Origin: Gammaproteobacteria bacterium
GTDB lineage: Bacteria > Pseudomonadota > Gammaproteobacteria > Eutrophobiales > Eutrophobiaceae
Direction of reading: 5' to 3'
DNA: 64,000 nucleotides
Assembly (NCBI GenBank): GCA_965215365.1
Contig: CBDCDS010000003.1
Coordinates: forward strand, 800,001-864,000
Positions 2,214 to 7,709 of this stretch are shown in pieces. Under the pieces are notes generated by a model. That model was not told the origin of the DNA. It made no database searches and saw only the letters and a list, made by a program, of their open reading frames with translations. The first letter of the stretch is position 1; each line of letters opens with the position of its first letter. Position numbers and translations under genes: made by a program.

Positions 2214-3581
2214 ATGAACCTTGCCGAACGTAAACTTATTGACTTGCAGTCTTATATCGCCTTGCTGGAACAGCACAACCACTTGGTACGTGTAAAAAGT
2301 GAGGTGGACCCCGTGTTCGAACTGGCCGGTATCGCCAAACAATTTGAGGGCGGCAAGGCGCTGCTGTTCGAAAATGTCAAGGGCAGTGACTTCCCGGCGC
2401 TGACCGGGTTGTACTGGAACCGTAATTTCATGGCGAAGTTTTTTCAGACTACCAGCGTCAGGCTGCCCTTCGTGCTGGCTGATGATATCCGGGCCTGGCG
2501 CAAGCACCCCATTGAACCCGTGATAGTACAACAAGGGCCGGCCAATGAGGTGGTTGAGACCGATCCTGACTTGCATACCCTGCCAATTCCCCACCACGCC
2601 GAAGGCGACGGCGGGCGCTACCTGACTTCTAGCGTGGTCATCGCCAAGGACCCGGACACGGGAGTGCGCAACCTGTCCATTCACCGCATGATGGTCACCG
2701 GCAAAAACCGCTGCACCCTGTTACTGGAAGAACTGGGCCACCTGATGGACTACTTCAAACGGGCCGAAGCCAGGGGGCAAGCGCTGGAGCTCACCGTCAA
2801 CAACGGCGCCGATTATGCCCTGACCATGGCCGCAGCATCACCCGCCTCCGCTGCGCCCATGGACTTGGATGAGATCGGCATCGCCTGTCAGATGCACGGC
2901 GCGCCGGTGCGCTTGATTGAAGCCCAAACCGTGGCCGTAGAGGCCTGGGCCGACGCGCAGTTCGTCATAGAAGGGAGAATACTCCCCAATGTAAGAGAGC
3001 CGGAAGGCCCCTACGCCGAGGTCACCGGCTACTACGCCGCCATGGCTCCACGCTGGGTGTTTGAGGTGACCGCCATCACCCGGCGGCGGGAACCGATCTT
3101 CCATTCCATCCTGTCCGGCAAGGAGGTGTATAACGCCTATGGCCTCAGCGCCGGCGCCGGCGCGTTCGACAAGATCCATAGTCTGGTGCCGGAGGTGACC
3201 GCGGTGCACTTCTCCGACGGCAGTGTGCCCTACCATCTGGTCGTGCAGATAGACAAGAAACACGAAGGCAGCCAGCGCAACGCCATCATGGCCGCGTTTG
3301 TCTCCCTGGCGTTCGTAAAAACTGTCACCGTGGTGGACACGGATGTGGATATCTACAGCCTCGCCGATGTGGACTGGGCCGTGCAGACTCGCTGCCGCTT
3401 CGATAAGGACCTGCTGCCGATACCCGACGGCATCGGCCATCGCCTCAACCCCATGGTGGAAGACGACAAATGGACGCGCCTGGGCATTGACGCCACTGTG
3501 CCGTTGCCGCGGCAGGACAAGTACCACCGAGCCACCATGTGCGCGGTGAACCTGGACGATTTTGATATGGAAGGGGCGTGA
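2214..3581 (+). CDS. UbiD family (prFMN-dependent) decarboxylase
   Basis: 455 aa; EGPYAEVTGYY, RNLSIHRM, VVDTDVDI and LGIDAT motifs. Confidence 0.9.
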   Translation: MNLAERKLIDLQSYIALLEQHNHLVRVKSEVDPVFELAGIAKQFEGGKALLFENVKGSDFPALTGLYWNRNFMAKFFQTTSVRLPFVLADDIRAWRKHPIEPVIVQQGPANEVVETDPDLHTLPIPHHAEGDGGRYLTSSVVIAKDPDTGVRNLSIHRMMVTGKNRCTLLLEELGHLMDYFKRAEARGQALELTVNNGADYALTMAAASPASAAPMDLDEIGIACQMHGAPVRLIEAQTVAVEAWADAQFVIEGRILPNVREPEGPYAEVTGYYAAMAPRWVFEVTAITRRREPIFHSILSGKEVYNAYGLSAGAGAFDKIHSLVPEVTAVHFSDGSVPYHLVVQIDKKHEGSQRNAIMAAFVSLAFVKTVTVVDTDVDIYSLADVDWAVQTRCRFDKDLLPIPDGIGHRLNPMVEDDKWTRLGIDATVPLPRQDKYHRATMCAVNLDDFDMEGA

Positions 3582-3707
3582 GATTTGAACTGCGATACGG
3601 TTGCAATACGTCGCGTAGGCCGCCATGTCATCTAGCTCCGGGAAGCTTCGCGAATTCATGCGAGTTGAGGAGCTCGAACTCGATAATTGGGTCAGTGAAT
3701 AAAAGAA

Positions 3708-4976
3708 ATGATTGCTAGGGGTGTTTTCGTTGTTGTTCTTTTGGTTGTCAATGGCGCTCAGGGTCATCCCGGGCGAACCGATGCGGACGGTTGTCACGCC
3801 GGCGCTGAGTCCTATCACTGTCATGATGAAATTATTGAATCCGGTGGTGGAAATATGAATATGTTTGCCGATGCTTTGGTCGATCCTGTTACACTGGTTG
3901 TTGCTTTTTTCATTGTAGTTTTGTTCGTTATCGGGTTGTTTTGGCAGCCGTTGCGAGAATCTGCGCCTGGGTTGCTGACCTCGTTGGGTATATTTGGCAC
4001 CTTCTTGGGAACGTTTATAGCCCTGTCTGGCTTTGATCCGTCCAGTGATATGAGCGATAGCGTCAATAATTTGCTTGGTGGGATGAAAATTGCTTTCGCT
4101 ACCAGTTTGCTCGGGATATTGGCCTCGATTGTTTTTAAGGTAATTGCTTCATTTCGGTTCAAGGAAGATGAACTGACTGAGAGTGAAGCGGTGTATCCGA
4201 TGGAAACGGTGCGTTTGCTCAACGAGATTAAGGAACATCTGGCGGTGACAAATTCAGGGCAACTGGAGTCGATTCGCAAGGCGTTGGTGGGGGATGAAAC
4301 CGAATACACCTTGTTGGGTCAGCATGCGCATGAACTTAAATGGCTTGAAAGCATAGAAGGGATGATGGCAAATACGCGGGATCTAATCGGTCAGGAAGGT
4401 GATCGGGGGGTACATAATCTGATTTTTGAATTGGCTGAGATGCGGTGGGCTTTAATTGGCGTTGAGCGAAGCAGTAAAAATTCGGATGAAGATGCTGGCT
4501 ACAATATTTATGACGTGTTGGAAAAGTTGGTTAAGAGTCAAAGTGAGTTGCTGGAAAAAACCGATACCCGGTTAGATAATCAAAGTAAGTTTATTGATAA
4601 TCAGGGTAAGTTGGTTGAGTCATTGACTGAACTCAGGCGGTGGCTTATTGAAAGCCAGCATCAATACACCGATGCGTTAGATAAAATTGCTTTGCAGTCT
4701 AATCAAGAGGATTCTGTTGACACCCGAGTTAAGTCCGTCGATCTTTTGAATGAAATCAGGCGGGTTAATTTGTTGTTGTCTAAATTTGACGCTAAAAAAA
4801 TTAATTCTTTAGTTGAGTCGGTTGATAAACTTATCCATCTTCAAAGTTCAGCTCATCAGCCGAAGAAAGGTGGTGCGACGTTAGAGGATATGCGGAATAT
4901 TATCAAAGAGCAATTGGCGCAAGTGGGTCAAACAACAGGTAATAAACAGAACGGCGGGAATGAAAAAAAAGACTGA
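3708..4976 (+). CDS. zorA: Zorya ZorA-like membrane protein (MotA/TolQ/ExbB channel with long helical tail) with N-terminal signal peptide and YHYH-like motif
   Basis: APGLLTSLGIFGTFLG...GMKIAFATSLLG TM core typical of ZorA, followed by about 270 aa of helical/coiled-coil tail; directly upstream of a ZorB-like gene; AT-richer than flanks. An alternative start lies near 3854 (MNMF). Confidence 0.78.
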   Translation: MIARGVFVVVLLVVNGAQGHPGRTDADGCHAGAESYHCHDEIIESGGGNMNMFADALVDPVTLVVAFFIVVLFVIGLFWQPLRESAPGLLTSLGIFGTFLGTFIALSGFDPSSDMSDSVNNLLGGMKIAFATSLLGILASIVFKVIASFRFKEDELTESEAVYPMETVRLLNEIKEHLAVTNSGQLESIRKALVGDETEYTLLGQHAHELKWLESIEGMMANTRDLIGQEGDRGVHNLIFELAEMRWALIGVERSSKNSDEDAGYNIYDVLEKLVKSQSELLEKTDTRLDNQSKFIDNQGKLVESLTELRRWLIESQHQYTDALDKIALQSNQEDSVDTRVKSVDLLNEIRRVNLLLSKFDAKKINSLVESVDKLIHLQSSAHQPKKGGATLEDMRNIIKEQLAQVGQTTGNKQNGGNEKKD

Positions 4977-5622
4977 TGAGCAATGGGCGCCGGTGTCGGA
5001 TTTAATGGCCGTCCTAATGTTAATTTTCATGTTTATATCGTTGTTGACAGTGCGGCATGTGATCGATGAGCGAGAAATCAATGAGTTGGAATGTAATAAG
5101 ATTTATGATTCTTTGGTGGCTGAATTCGATCAGGATTTTGAAAAATGGGATATTGCTTTGTTAGACGACCTGACGATTCGTTTTAATAACCCGGAATTGC
5201 TGTTCAAATCGAATGAAAGTCGTATCAGCCCCCGTTTTGCAATCATTCTACAGGACTTTTTCCCGCGTTATCTGGCGGTTATCCTGCAAGATAAATACCG
5301 CTCTGATATTCGTAAAATACGGATAGAGGGTCATACGTCGTCGGAATGGAAGGACGCAGTGAATGAAAAAGATGCTTATTTTTTGAATATGCAACTTTCA
5401 CAAGCTCGTACCTGGAATATCCTGCGCTACATTATGACATTGCCGACCAGTGTGTATTATTTTGATTGGGCTAAAAAATATGTCAGTGCAGACGGGATGT
5501 CATCGAGTGATCCGATTTTAACCAGTGATGGGATTGAAAATAAAGAACGTTCGCGGCGGGTTGATTTTCGTCTTATTACCACATCGTGCCGGAGGGCCGG
5601 AGTCTATGAGCAATCTATCTGA
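4960..5622 (+). CDS. zorB: Zorya ZorB-like OmpA/MotB family protein
   Basis: W-x-PVSDLMAVLMLIF TM with conserved Asp; FFPRYL, IRIEGHTSSEW, YFLNMQLSQAR and SRRVDF motifs as in type II ZorB; overlaps zorA by 17 nt. Confidence 0.85.
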   Translation: MKKKTDEQWAPVSDLMAVLMLIFMFISLLTVRHVIDEREINELECNKIYDSLVAEFDQDFEKWDIALLDDLTIRFNNPELLFKSNESRISPRFAIILQDFFPRYLAVILQDKYRSDIRKIRIEGHTSSEWKDAVNEKDAYFLNMQLSQARTWNILRYIMTLPTSVYYFDWAKKYVSADGMSSSDPILTSDGIENKERSRRVDFRLITTSCRRAGVYEQSI

Positions 5623-6226
5623 TAATTCTAATGAAGGGCTGTCTGTTATGCTGCCTTATCAGCTTATTATTGTGCCGGTCTTGCTTGTTGCTATCCTGCC
5701 AATGCCCTACGGTTATTACACGCTAGTCAGATTGATATGTTGCGCCCTGTTTGTCGATTTAACGGTTCGGCTTTTGGTTAATACTGATAATTCTAAATTG
5801 GGTGGTTGGAGTTTTCTTTGGTTTTTGACGGCGTTTTGTGCAATTTTATACAATCCCTTTATTCCGGTTCATTTGACCAAAGAAATCTGGACGGTGACCA
5901 ACCTTGTCTCTTTGGGTATTGGTGGGGGTGCGGTTTATCTGTTAAGTCGGTTGTCCAAGCCAAAGAAAAAAACCGGAAAAGGAAAAGAACAGTATGCCAC
6001 CGATAAGTTGAAAAAAGCCGATGGTAATTCAATGGCAAAGCAGAAATCAGAGTTAGTGAAAAAGGGGGCGGTTAAGGCACAGCCGGATGTTGAAAACGGC
6101 GAGAAACAGAGCAAAATTAAACAGTGGGCGGCGAGGGCTAATCCGGGGGCTAGATCGGATTACGGGCAATATAGAAAGGACGGGCCGAGGGCTAAGACCA
6201 AGCAGGCTAAGCAACGCCCTTTTTAG
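5606..6226 (+). CDS. DUF6804-like small membrane protein with Lys-rich C-terminal tail
   Basis: AILPMPYGYYTLVR and AILYNPFIPVHL-x-K-x-IW motifs; about 4 TM segments; start overlaps zorB 3' end. Confidence 0.7.
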   Translation: MSNLSDNSNEGLSVMLPYQLIIVPVLLVAILPMPYGYYTLVRLICCALFVDLTVRLLVNTDNSKLGGWSFLWFLTAFCAILYNPFIPVHLTKEIWTVTNLVSLGIGGGAVYLLSRLSKPKKKTGKGKEQYATDKLKKADGNSMAKQKSELVKKGAVKAQPDVENGEKQSKIKQWAARANPGARSDYGQYRKDGPRAKTKQAKQRPF

Positions 6227-6249
6227 CCAAAGACGCATGGCATTAGCTT

Positions 6250-6780
6250 TTGTTGAGAGAATCAGATTTGGACAAAAGTACTGATAATGAAACTTCGACC
6301 GATCGTCCCATTGTATATATGGAGACGACAGTGGTGAGCTACCTGACCGCCAGGCCGAGTCGCGATGTGGTCATAGCAGGACATCAGCAATCAACCCGGG
6401 AATGGTGGGAAGACAGACAAAGCGATTTCAGGGTTGTTGCATCACCACTTGTATTGCAAGAGGCAAGTAGAGGAGACAATCAGGCAGCGCAATCCAGGCT
6501 GGATATTTTAAGGATTGTGGAGTTATTGGAGATCAATGATGACGCAACGACCTTGGCGCGTGAGTTGATAGAAAGCGGAATAATTCCTGAAACTTCGCTT
6601 GATGACGCTTTACATGTCGCTATCGCTGCCGTTAATGGATGTAACTATCTGGCTACTTGGAACTACCGTCATCTGGTCAGCGCTGGGGTGCGGGCGCGAA
6701 TCGAGACATTTTGTCGAGACAAAGGCTATGAAGCGGTGATAATCTGCACACCAGAGGACCTTTTGGAGGAAGCAACATGA
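6250..6780 (+). CDS. PIN-domain (VapC-like) toxin/nuclease
   Basis: VYMETTVVSYL...DALHVAIA...YLATWNYRHL...ICTPEDL, the PIN acidic motif pattern. Confidence 0.85.
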   Translation: MLRESDLDKSTDNETSTDRPIVYMETTVVSYLTARPSRDVVIAGHQQSTREWWEDRQSDFRVVASPLVLQEASRGDNQAAQSRLDILRIVELLEINDDATTLARELIESGIIPETSLDDALHVAIAAVNGCNYLATWNYRHLVSAGVRARIETFCRDKGYEAVIICTPEDLLEEAT

Positions 6781-6944
6781 AGAACGACCCTATTGTGGAA
6801 GAAGTACGTAGAATCAGAGATGAACATGCGGCAAGATTCAAATACGATTTGGACTTGATAGTGAAAGACCTCAAAGAGCAGGAACGGGCAAGCGGCCGGA
6901 CGTATATCAGGCTGCCACCGCGTCGTATTAAACCGAAATCATGA
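6777..6944 (+). CDS. Small (55 aa) partner of the PIN protein, putative antitoxin
   Basis: Not in the ORF track; MKNDPIVEEVRRIRDEHAARFKYDLDLIVKDLKEQE..., ATGA overlap with the PIN stop and GGAGGA RBS. Confidence 0.75.
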   Translation: MKNDPIVEEVRRIRDEHAARFKYDLDLIVKDLKEQERASGRTYIRLPPRRIKPKS

Positions 6945-6995
6945 AGGAATAGGGCGTTTGTCAGATCGGGCGCCTTGAAAATCAATCATCGAAGT

Positions 6996-7709
6996 TTAGT
7001 CTGCGGATTTATCCTGCTCAATCTTTTTCTTCAACTCCTCCATTTCCTCGTCCACCTTGTGCAGGTGGTCGAGCAGGGCGTCGAGGGTGTTTTGTACCGG
7101 GTCGGGCATGTCTTTGCTGCCGCCGTAGGCGTCGAAGCCGATTTTTCTGGCCATGGCGGCGCGCTGGGCTTTTTTCAATTCCTCCTCGGCGCCGGACTCC
7201 CGAGCCATGATGCGGCCGGGGATGCCGACTACGGTGGCGTGGTCGGGGACATCCTTGATAACCACTGCGTTAGAGCCAATCCTGGCGTTGGCACCTAGGG
7301 TGATGGGGCCTAAGACCTTGGCGCCGGCGCCGATGATGACGCCGTTTTTCAGGGTCGGGTGGCGTTTGCCTTTCTGCCAGGTGGTGCCGCCTAAGGTGAC
7401 ACCGTGGTAGATGGAGCAGTCATCGCCGATCTCCGAAGTCTCACCGATGACGATGCCCATGCCGTGGTCGATAAACAGGCGGCGGCCGATGCCGGCGCCG
7501 GGGTGAATCTCCACACCGGTGAGAAAGCGCGACAGGTGCGAGCTGAGGCGCGCAAGCAGATAGAGTTTCTTGTTCCACAGCCAGTGGTTCACGCGATGCA
7601 GCAGGATCGCATGCAGGCCGGGGCAGGTGAGCAGGGTTTCCAGCGCGCTGCGGGCGGCGGGGTCGCGCTCGAACACTACTTGTATGTCTTCTTTGAGGGT
7701 GTTGAACAT
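6996..7709 (-). CDS. cysE: Serine O-acetyltransferase
   Basis: [15 protein letters not shown][13 protein letters not shown], KRHPTL and VVGIPGR motifs. Confidence 0.96.

Follow-up and report, generated by a model that had tools for sequence, protein, structure and literature searches.

An in-frame YHYH_alt leader and motif before a ZorA-like stator subunit suggests recent gene capture rather than a conserved new sensor

In the window, the 64,000-nucleotide stretch of gammaproteobacterial DNA analysed here, one uninterrupted forward frame (3708..4976, 422 codons, 422 aa) joins a Sec-type leader and a YHYH_alt-type His/Cys motif to a ZorA-like membrane motor subunit. Compared with its relatives, this arrangement looks more like a recent accident of gene capture than a new sensor that has been conserved. 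We put the probability at roughly 55% that the gene encodes a ZorAB-like stator subunit with its canonical start at 3855 or 3861, and that the 5' end of a YHYH_alt gene has been captured in frame upstream of it. The locus would then be a type-II-like ZorA-ZorB stator pair whose working ZorA is made from ATG 3855 or 3861, and the preceding 147 nt would represent the captured start codon, Sec leader and 20-residue motif from a gene encoding a small secreted His/Cys protein. A rearrangement would have fused this 5' end to the old zorA 5' untranslated region, which would have happened to be stop-free and in frame. The weak start at 3708 may yield some long form, whose export would then leave the N-terminus outside, with cleavage after AQG; the extension would be neither conserved nor required in the motor. 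Operation would be as in ZorAB, with five ZorA around two peptidoglycan-anchored ZorB, driven by ions and signalling via the cytoplasmic ZorA tail, here without ZorE. The features of the locus are as follows.

3584..3703, forward strand: leftover vapB-vapC pieces (AbrB/MazE-like antitoxin and PIN toxin), identified by blastn and alignment against the relative G006, where vapBC is intact
about 3584-3632, forward strand: vapB-internal piece, from the alignment to G006
about 3633-3648, forward strand: vapC piece of 16 nt, from the alignment to G006
3651-3703, forward strand: last ~17 vapC codons and TAA stop, from the alignment to G006
3708..3764, forward strand: start codon and Sec-type leader, codons 1-19
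3765..3824, forward strand: YHYH_alt-type His/Cys motif HPGRTDADGCHAGAESYHCH, 20 residues, codons 20-39 (NF033223)
3825..3854, forward strand: AT-rich linker DEIIESGGGN, 10 codons, GC 0.37, GC3 0.10
3855..4976, forward strand: ZorA-like subunit in its canonical extent, from M50 (alternative M52 at 3861), with three TM segments and a C-terminal tail predicted as helical
4960..5622, forward strand: ZorB2-like subunit, TM helix and OmpA-like peptidoglycan-binding domain (PADLOC ZorB2, Pfam OmpA)
5525..6226, forward strand: DUF6804 membrane protein ORF (Pfam PF20619, E 1.1e-16; no PADLOC match)
6250..6780, forward strand: PIN-domain protein of 176 aa, last gene of the island (Pfam PIN, E 5.2e-5; no PADLOC match)

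Translation of the ORF gives an N-terminus in the order MIARGVFVVVLLVVNGAQG, HPGRTDADGCHAGAESYHCH, DEIIESGGGN, followed by M50-N51-M52. The leader has an n-region (MIAR), an h-region (GVFVVVLLVV) and a c-region (NGAQG) in which positions -3 and -1 are A and G. Hydropathy reveals four hydrophobic segments, the leader (1-20) and residues ~61-79, 89-109 and 125-148. A leader and YHYH-type motif in frame before a ZorA-type core, as originally predicted, are present according to the ORF translation, NF033223, MotA_ExbB and PADLOC ZorA2. The proposed N-out topology with the motif in the periplasm also found support in the sequence: the core with its three TM segments, the cytoplasmic tail and the acidic extension (net charge -7 over residues 20-60) make a coherent N-out layout, an orientation that we also infer from the ZorA layers as given in the available part of PMC11946911.

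The core is ZorA-like. Pfam MotA_ExbB (PF01618) matches residues 91-148 with 23.9 bits (cut-off 22.9), the best PADLOC match is ZorA2 PDLC00640 (E 5.2e-26, residues 59-205), and PDB ZorA chains match at E 5e-9 to 2e-8. The NCBIfam ZorA2 equivalog NF041792 scores 56.3 bits against a cut-off of 700 and covers residues 82-185 only; by its sequence, the tail appears too diverged for this curated model. An AlphaFold2 model of the long form reaches pLDDT 73-92 only for residues ~51-150. In Foldseek, ranks 1-6 are ZorA chains with E 7.4e-3 to 9.0e-2, none reaching 1e-3; the top one is 8vvi_C (TMt 0.71, 30% identity over 101 columns, E 7.4e-3). ESM Atlas searches with residues 1-150 gave best scores of 0.76 and 0.75 to MotA_ExbB clusters, below the meaningful level. 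The C-terminal tail lies outside the PADLOC profile coverage. Helices are predicted through 165-413, for the most part at pLDDT under 60, and a 36-sequence alignment shows no variation at W312 or Q317.

Compared with the type II Zorya complex of Sulfuricurvum kujiense (PDB 8vvi), as far as described in the accessible part of PMC11890865, the locus shares the three-TM MotA/ExbB-type core, ZorA2 and ZorB2 as best PADLOC matches, the OmpA-like domain in ZorB, a predicted helical ZorA tail and, in the short form, a similar ZorA length (371 aa versus 378 aa for the solved chain). It differs in the in-frame N-terminal leader and motif and in the reach of the ZorA2 profiles, which match just residues ~58-205 here but nearly the full length at the type II loci read in relatives.

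Where ZorA homology begins bears on our reading. PADLOC ZorA2 profiles match from query residue 58-66, at profile positions 8-38. In the alignment with the type II chain 8vvi_F (378 aa), query residues 66-163 pair with chain residues 15-107, so that chain residue 1 falls at query residue 52, and a protein starting there has 371 aa. A phmmer search of 1.84 billion representatives returned 2221 ZorA-like matches at E <= 1e-3. Among the best 150 of these, the motif is covered only in P0005, a protein 91% identical to that of ORF 3708-4976, and the other 149 match from query residue 38-87. More than 50 residues precede the match in 10 of these 150; all ten were read and none has the motif. Because ZorA homology, P0005 excepted, begins no earlier than residue 38 in these 150, and because the first residue of the solved chain falls at M52, we favour capture of the upstream segment; by its sequence, the canonical ZorA N-terminus maps to M50-M52.

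The linker fits the same reading. It contains the SD-like run GGTGGTGGA at 3843-3851, followed by in-frame ATGs at 3855-3857 (M50) and 3861-3863 (M52), which agrees with the second start originally proposed near 3854. The short form would have 373 aa from ATG 3855 or 371 aa from ATG 3861. Calculated SD duplex energies are -6.4 kcal/mol for each of these two ATGs, a value reached by 9% of random ATGs, and -3.1 kcal/mol for ATG 3708, which is equalled or bettered by 41% of them. The better SD at 3855/3861 argues for a captured upstream start, although the weight of this comparison is limited by the weak overall SD use of the genome and a crude calibration set of starts. Public gene calls disagree, with three short calls from M52 (P0015, P0017, P0019) against three long ones; the call in the window's own assembly (P0015, 371 aa) starts at M52, and we count this split, too, in favour of capture. 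The conflicting annotations of the same gene call for caution with start-codon calls. Among 10 sigma-70-like sites found in 3300-7100 (shuffles 5.6 +/- 2.8), none lies upstream of 3708. The same scan gave a single terminator-like site, within zorA. RNA folding of 3800-3900 showed no structure (z = +1.18), and Rfam had no match at E <= 0.1 within 3000-7200.

The motif resembles that of a known family. NF033223 (NCBIfam YHYH_alt, 25 positions) matches residues 17-39 with 26.3 bits (E 7.1e-6) against a curated cut-off of 30 bits; in a six-frame scan of the whole 2.73-Mb genome the motif scores 30.6 bits and is the sole match above the cut-off among three at E <= 10, the two weak ones scoring 18.1 bits (within an opposite-strand 475-aa ORF) and 13.9 bits. 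The HMM search suggested in the original prediction returned NF033223 at about its cut-off; the larger Pfam YHYH domain (PF14240) gave no match to the ORF protein at E <= 1. The zinc-site prediction in print concerns that larger, here unmatched domain, in the available parts of PMC7824862 and bioRxiv 10.64898/2026.10.18.759936. Across 201 genomes sampled from the class, NF033223 is found at E <= 1e-4 in 6. The claim that such motifs stand right after a signal peptide held for four of the five other-genome loci (L016, L017, L019, L021) and for 21 of 21 YHYH_alt-family proteins listed from same-genus genomes; L020 has the motif at its C-terminal end, and L018 went unmatched by the search pattern. 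The proteins with the motif behind a leader are EEP-type nuclease-like (L016), low-complexity (L017, L019, L021) or members of a multi-copy ~185-aa genus family. They share with ORF 3708-4976 a leader followed immediately by H-x-G-x-T/V-D/N-x2-3-G-C/G-H ... Y/R-H-C-H, and in all of them, as after the predicted cleavage AQG/HPG here, His would be the first mature residue, a layout read from these examples rather than a curated family rule. The present case differs in having a membrane motor subunit instead of a soluble domain behind the motif, in a leader dissimilar to that of the genus family, and in a score at the cut-off (26.3 and 30.6 versus 30 bits). A structure model of the genus family protein was unusable (mean pLDDT 49.1); a predicted alpha-beta-beta-beta-alpha-beta pattern with D/E/K residues hints at a restriction-endonuclease-like fold.

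How far the family homology extends also bears on the junction. By tblastn, a standalone same-genus YHYH protein matches only 3759-3824 (22 aa, 77% identity), and the homology ends exactly at codon 39 (nt 3824). Because it stops there, and the next 30 nt combine a GC3 of 0.10 with the SD-like run, the linker would be a one-time zorA untranslated leader and the segment before it a captured 5' end. GC3 is 0.37 in the leader and 0.55 in the motif, closer to the island around zorA (0.46) than to the host gene ubiD (0.76), but segments of 19-20 codons are too short to point to a donor. A tblastn search for leftovers of the 3' end of a YHYH gene, covering the window's first 16 kb, the G006 locus and the own genome, found nothing convincing beyond the motif, all other matches having E >= 0.39 over 11-87 aa. 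Relatives were also examined for a native YHYH gene beside cysE, and none turned up: in 5 of 5 genomes the YHYH copies are far from cysE, and the two cysE neighbourhoods read contain other genes.

The distribution of the architecture is narrow. With residues 1-58 as query, a word-based search of proteins 232-739 aa long returned P0005 only, and the ZorA-like ORFs read in five relatives (G007, G005, G010, G028, G057; ZorA2 assignment confirmed by PADLOC for G005, G010 and G028) have neither leader (0/5) nor motif (0/5); both results argue for capture. The same search among proteins of 30-231 aa gave no candidate, a blank of little weight because it also missed known same-genus YHYH proteins. 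Metagenome scans with P0001 and P0018 revealed no further alleles, and a scan of the genome collection returned only the record of G006. No paper on a YHYH-ZorA fusion stood among those listed in literature searches; supplements of Zorya papers may list relevant ZorA architectures. By these searches, only two alleles, closely related to each other, have the YHYH_alt-ZorA architecture. A remnant YHYH gene read through into zorA by chance, named at the outset as what would speak against a sensor, has become the likelier reading, though not proven. Probably a young, unconserved product of gene capture, the extension alone teaches little about Zorya.

The second allele of the pair (G006; cluster members P0005, P0016, P0018) begins with the same ATG. 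Codons 3-13 are deleted, an in-frame loss of 33 nt or 11 leader codons that removes the whole hydrophobic core; the motif reads YHCP instead of YHCH, without its last His, and scores 23.9 bits with NF033223. Since this sister lacks the leader core and has YHCP, we again favour capture. Together with the restriction of the architecture to the one pair, the ZorA N-terminus at M50-M52, the better internal SD and the own-assembly call at M52, this did not bear out the idea of a conserved new input module.

Several observations speak against capture and for a genuine fusion. In that case translation would start at ATG 3708, the leader would be cleaved after AQG, and each ZorA would display a 30-residue periplasmic module, His first (4 His, 2 Cys, several Asp), beside the peptidoglycan-binding ZorB dimer, where it would bind a metal ion or ligand and tune or trigger the motor. 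We regard this as possible, though clearly the less probable reading. An intact open frame starts with a good leader, takes in a complete motif and runs on into ZorA; an in-frame, stop-free junction would, by our estimate, arise by chance alone in about 1 of 6 cases. The sister deletion is in frame and neither allele has a frameshift or stop. Substitutions are few and mostly synonymous: codons 14-49 differ between window and G006 by two synonymous and one nonsynonymous change, giving a pN/pS of ~0.15, which with three changes proves nothing but is no worse than that of the TM core (0.30). (The difference at codon 13 was left out as an alignment-junction artefact, MAFFT having misplaced the first 13 codons.) The 57 nt upstream and the extension diverge less than the synonymous sites of neighbouring genes. 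The net -7 extension and the three-TM, tail-in layout would fit export, and the motif seems to act as a portable N-terminal unit behind the leaders of differing proteins, as in the four class-sample loci and the genus family. Against a genuine fusion stand its occurrence in one lineage only, the weak SD at 3708, and the sister, which lacks the leader core and one conserved His yet keeps ZorA and ZorB. Residues 1-47 of the AlphaFold2 model have pLDDT 33-45 and no confident fold, which is uninformative rather than negative. According to the published model, in the available parts of PMC11946911 and PMC11890865, ZorAB detects envelope perturbation via peptidoglycan-bound ZorB and signals down the ZorA tail. 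If true, an exported sensor module on ZorA would be a directly testable second input; with capture, the locus offers a snapshot of the in-frame grafting of an N-terminal module onto a membrane motor.

Motor subunits with N-terminal leaders provide precedents for a fusion. The available part of PMC9008036 describes a long ExbB of Serratia marcescens that likewise has three TM segments and works in an ion-driven 5:2 motor. Mass spectrometry showed its signal sequence to be cleaved, and its ~50-residue periplasmic N-terminal extension contributes to partner interaction. This ExbB comes from another branch of the superfamily, the Ton system; instead of a His/Cys motif it has an unstructured extension rich in Ala and Pro, and its architecture, unlike that of ORF 3708-4976, is conserved across many species. 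Closer to ZorA, P0084 (201 aa) and P0088 (157 aa, partial, from a Campylobacterales MAG) carry a leader and a ComEA-like helix-hairpin-helix (HhH) N-terminus, followed by the first TM segment of their ZorA2-like core (Pfam HHH_3, E 2.8e-14, and MotA_ExbB; PADLOC ZorA2, E 4e-18). Their module is a DNA-binding HhH and their lineage unrelated, with 35% core identity to the ORF 3708-4976 protein. P0131 has an N-terminal extension of ~270 residues. By analogy, these cases may count against capture. Taken further, they could mean that ZorA-family stators repeatedly gain leader-dependent periplasmic N-terminal input modules, YHYH_alt here, ComEA-like HhH in P0084/P0088 and the long extension in P0131; the long form would then be made and cleaved at AQG/H, and the ZorB dimer would be ringed by five peptides that bind a metal or a ligand. 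We consider this broader proposal doubtful, somewhat more so than the fusion itself. As a lead, the ZorA-like proteins with a periplasmic ComEA-like DNA-binding domain appear better than the extension described here.

A false YHYH-zorA junction from sequencing or assembly is highly improbable, and nothing was found in its favour. Over 3400-5000 (1601 nt), the window allele shows zero differences in contigs of four runs, which represent at most three samples from two studies, possibly including the source of the window, and as contigs are silent on transcription and starts. The junction recurs, at about 92-97% identity, in a second genome and in other assemblies. The identity among runs also speaks for a genuine fusion.

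The sequence upstream of 3708 bears on a further alternative, in which both ATG 3708 and ATG 3855/3861 are used and a minority long form enters mixed pentamers with neutral or mildly modulatory effect. Both starts are intact and in frame, and the internal SD is kept. In G006, vapBC is intact (L014, 6342-6641 and 6641-7036; Pfam PIN E 2.4e-15, MazE_antitoxin E 6.8e-4), and the long-form ATG lies 5 nt past the vapC stop, a spacing allowing translational coupling. There is no such coupling in the window, because its upstream vapC is reduced to fragments, and we consider dual starts unlikely.

Whatever its N-terminus, the zorA-zorB pair sits in a ~3.3-kb low-GC island, not bounded by repeats, with the zorB start overlapping the zorA end (4960 versus 4976). 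ZorB, the only ZorB2 match of the genome, is recognised by PADLOC ZorB2 (E 1.8e-74) and Pfam OmpA (E 1.4e-7) and scores 159 bits with NCBIfam ZorB2 against a cut-off of 400; its pN/pS versus G006 is 0.08. ZorE, the HNH nickase/effector, was found neither in the island nor in the 97.6%-complete genome (searched genome-wide with one ZorE profile, PDLC00645), whereas zorA-zorB-zorE is the order in 3 of 3 type II loci read in relatives. The locus matches the expected Zorya motor in ZorA2 and ZorB2 but, with no ZorE found, does not amount to a complete type II Zorya. In place of ZorE, the DUF6804 and PIN genes follow zorB. Translation of the DUF6804 ORF probably starts within it, at an ATG near 5606; this ORF has a pN/pS of 0.40 versus G006, and the PIN gene differs by 0 nonsynonymous and 10 synonymous changes. 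This ZorAB cassette, which lacks ZorE but has conserved DUF6804 and PIN genes, is the second lead that we regard as better than the extension.

The zorA frame and its partner in the window comprise the following features.

3708-4976, forward strand: long zorA ORF of 422 codons, a single open frame in four parts
codons 1-19, forward strand: Sec-type leader MIARGVFVVVLLVVNGAQG with n-, h- and c-regions, A at -3 and G at -1
codons 20-39, forward strand: YHYH_alt-type motif HPGRTDADGCHAGAESYHCH, matching the 25-position NCBIfam model NF033223
codons 40-49, forward strand: AT-rich linker DEIIESGGGN
ATG 3855 and ATG 3861, forward strand: internal starts M50 and M52, followed by the ZorA-type core
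4960-5622, forward strand: ZorB2, a clear PADLOC match (E 1.8e-74)

HMM search of the N-terminus, one of the checks proposed beforehand, placed NF033223 at codons 20-39 with 26.3 bits on the ORF protein (E 7.1e-6, cut-off 30); when the whole genome was scanned in all six frames, the score there was 30.6 bits. The zorA leader match is the only one of three in the genome above the cut-off; one of the two weak matches lies within a transporter-like ORF on the opposite strand. A Pfam search of the ORF gave no match to the larger YHYH domain. Three segments of the core are hydrophobic, its tail is cytoplasmic, and it is recognised by Pfam MotA_ExbB (residues 91-148), by PADLOC ZorA2 profiles beginning at residue 58-66 (best E 5.2e-26) and by PDB ZorA chains (E 5e-9 to 2e-8). 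The top six Foldseek hits of the predicted AlphaFold2 structure are ZorA chains, type II complex 8vvi first, none of them at E 1e-3. The parts of the ORF, the motif match and the ZorA core with its adjoining ZorB2 therefore confirm the original prediction of an in-frame leader and YHYH-type motif ahead of ZorA. The second ATG it expected near 3854 is present as two internal ATGs, at 3855 and 3861. An artefact can all but be dismissed. In the literature texts covered, supplements aside, no YHYH-ZorA fusion was found described.

The fusion of leader, motif and ZorA is plausible as a protein, and the architecture is physically sensible. By analogy with the layers of E. coli ZorA, described as a cytoplasmic domain at 48-127, periplasmic contacts made by 163-164 and a tail that begins at 223 (PMC11946911), the ZorA N-terminus would face the periplasm. 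In Serratia, the long ExbB has been proven to carry a cleaved signal sequence and a periplasmic extension of ~50 residues (PMC9008036). Other ZorA-like proteins also carry N-terminal additions. In the public records P0084 and P0088 (Pfam HHH_3 E 2.8e-14, PADLOC ZorA2 E 4e-18), the core is preceded by a leader and an HhH domain of the ComEA type; both records are short, and P0088, which stems from a Campylobacterales MAG, is partial. With a DNA-binding domain in the periplasm, a Zorya-type stator would be able to sense incoming DNA directly. In P0131 (844 aa), an N-terminal extension of ~270 residues, with a hydrophobic segment and then ~130 residues, precedes the first core TM and matched no Pfam family in a Pfam search. 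The extension in the window has a net charge of -7 and is probably metal-dependent; the AlphaFold2 model has low confidence throughout residues 1-47 (pLDDT 33-45), which is uninformative for so short a peptide. A genuine exported long form translated from ATG 3708 would have this architecture, and we regard it as a tentative alternative, on the unlikely side.

We favour, at a probability of about 55%, the reading that the 5' end of another gene was captured here as a young and unconserved extension. Four points argue for it: the extension is confined to one lineage; in the sister allele, both the leader and a conserved His have degenerated; the canonical start, which has the better Shine-Dalgarno (SD) sequence, has been kept intact; and all other family members agree with M50-M52. 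An exhaustive phmmer scan of the ORF returned 2221 ZorA-like representatives at E <= 1e-3. Among the best 150, P0005 alone covered the motif, and in the other 149 the match started between query residues 38 and 87 and, in most, within residues 1-40 of the hit; the motif was absent from all 10 of the 150 with more than 50 residues before the aligned part. The alignment offset of the type II ZorA chain 8vvi_F (378 aa) places its residue 1 at query residue 52, and the short form is 371 aa long. Neither leader nor motif occurs in any of five relatives' ZorA-like ORFs, three of them PADLOC-confirmed as ZorA2. A word-based search with residues 1-58 found P0005 alone among proteins of 232-739 aa and none among shorter proteins, a weak blank because known YHYH proteins of the genus were missed as well. 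At ATG 3708 the SD duplex has an energy of -3.1 kcal/mol, a value reached by 41% of random ATGs of the genome, and -6.4 at ATG 3855 and 3861, reached by 9%; the calibration is crude and SD use in this genome modest. Public gene calls are split, with three records starting at M52 (including P0015 of this assembly) and three at the upstream ATG. Use of both starts, yielding long and short forms, appears improbable.

The same architecture was sought elsewhere and is known from only one other allele, restricted to one lineage: G006, a genome of the same genus, and the assemblies of P0005, P0016 and P0018, which hold it intact at 91-92% identity. The zorA of G006 is split past ~codon 283 by an IS256-family transposase gene (L005 2356-3609, 417 aa, NCBIfam E 7.4e-95). 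The sister allele shares its upstream sequence and its ATG with the window. It lacks 33 nt, codons 3-13, which form the entire hydrophobic core of the leader; for such a deletion the chance expectation of staying in frame is 1/3. It reads YHCP against YHCH in the window, and its YHYH_alt score is down to 23.9 bits. Counting from codon 14, since the apparent change at codon 13 is a deletion-junction artefact, codons 14-49 show two synonymous differences (R23, A31) and a single nonsynonymous one (H39P), three changes that fit selection and drift alike. Against G006, pN/pS is 0.30 in the TM core, 0.41 in zorA codons 284-422 and 0.08 in zorB, and none of 10 changes in the PIN gene is nonsynonymous. 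The tail patch at codons 161-283 (window 4188-4556) has a pN/pS of 3.25 (12 nonsynonymous, one synonymous), against 0.30-0.41 in the flanking gene parts, and could reflect selection that is relaxed or diversifying, or else a patch acquired by recombination.

As to a possible donor of the extension, a secreted YHYH_alt protein of ~180-190 aa occurs in genomes of the genus in as many as six copies, built from a leader, QG/HPGRTD(A/S)EGCHAG..HCH, a Pro/Ala/Gly/Ser-rich linker and a conserved C-terminal domain; the window's own genome has none. By tblastn this protein matched the window at 3759-3824 only (22 residues, 77%), with 83-84% DNA identity over 45-48 nt; no likeness was found in the leader or past codon 39, nor any remnant of the C-terminal domain. 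The 30 nt past the motif (GC3 0.10, with GGTGGTGGA) look like a former untranslated zorA leader. Across the class, YHYH_alt occurs in 6 of 201 sampled genomes, immediately after a leader in four of five other-genome loci and ahead of unrelated parts, one an EEP-type nuclease-like protein; judged by this placement, the motif is a portable N-terminal unit.

In the multi-copy family of the genus (L012, L013, L028-L047), the copies of one genome, up to six, share ~90% DNA identity, ~100-130 nt of upstream sequence included. Its C-terminal domain has no Pfam family; the secondary structure, predicted as alpha-beta-beta-beta-alpha-beta, hints at a nuclease-like fold, but from a poor model (pLDDT 49). 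At L016 553-1728 (genome G054), YHYH_alt (45.9 bits) immediately follows the leader of a 391-aa protein that weakly matches the EEP family and extracellular nucleases (MnuA, ExeM/NucH), and the motif may accompany secreted nucleases.

The genes from zorA to PIN lie in a low-GC island (~3600-6900, GC 0.39-0.49 vs ~0.60 outside) with these neighbours.

2214-3581: ubiD, one flank
3584-3703: vapB-vapC leftovers in three pieces, between ubiD and the zorA ORF
minus strand: cysE and valS, the other flank

Downstream of zorB lie the genes for a membrane protein of the DUF6804 family and for a PIN-domain protein of 176 aa, neither with a PADLOC match. ZorE is absent from the island, and one ZorE profile found no match in the 97.6%-complete genome. 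The type II loci of three relatives (G005, G010, G028), unlike the window, all read zorA-zorB-zorE, and ZorA2 profiles cover almost the full length of their ZorA proteins, in contrast to the window's. The window's pair therefore resembles ZorAB but has a diverged tail and lacks a known effector, and it is not a complete type II Zorya. The cassette at 4960-6780 sets ZorAB without ZorE before the DUF6804 and PIN proteins. Since zorB and the PIN gene show so few nonsynonymous changes against the sister allele, the four genes may together be a functional variant of the Zorya kind in which a PIN nuclease takes the effector's place. The vapB-vapC pair is intact in G006 (L014 6342-7036), where the vapC stop lies 5 nt upstream of the same long-form ATG, and in G020, another relative, a vapB-like piece also lies near cysE.
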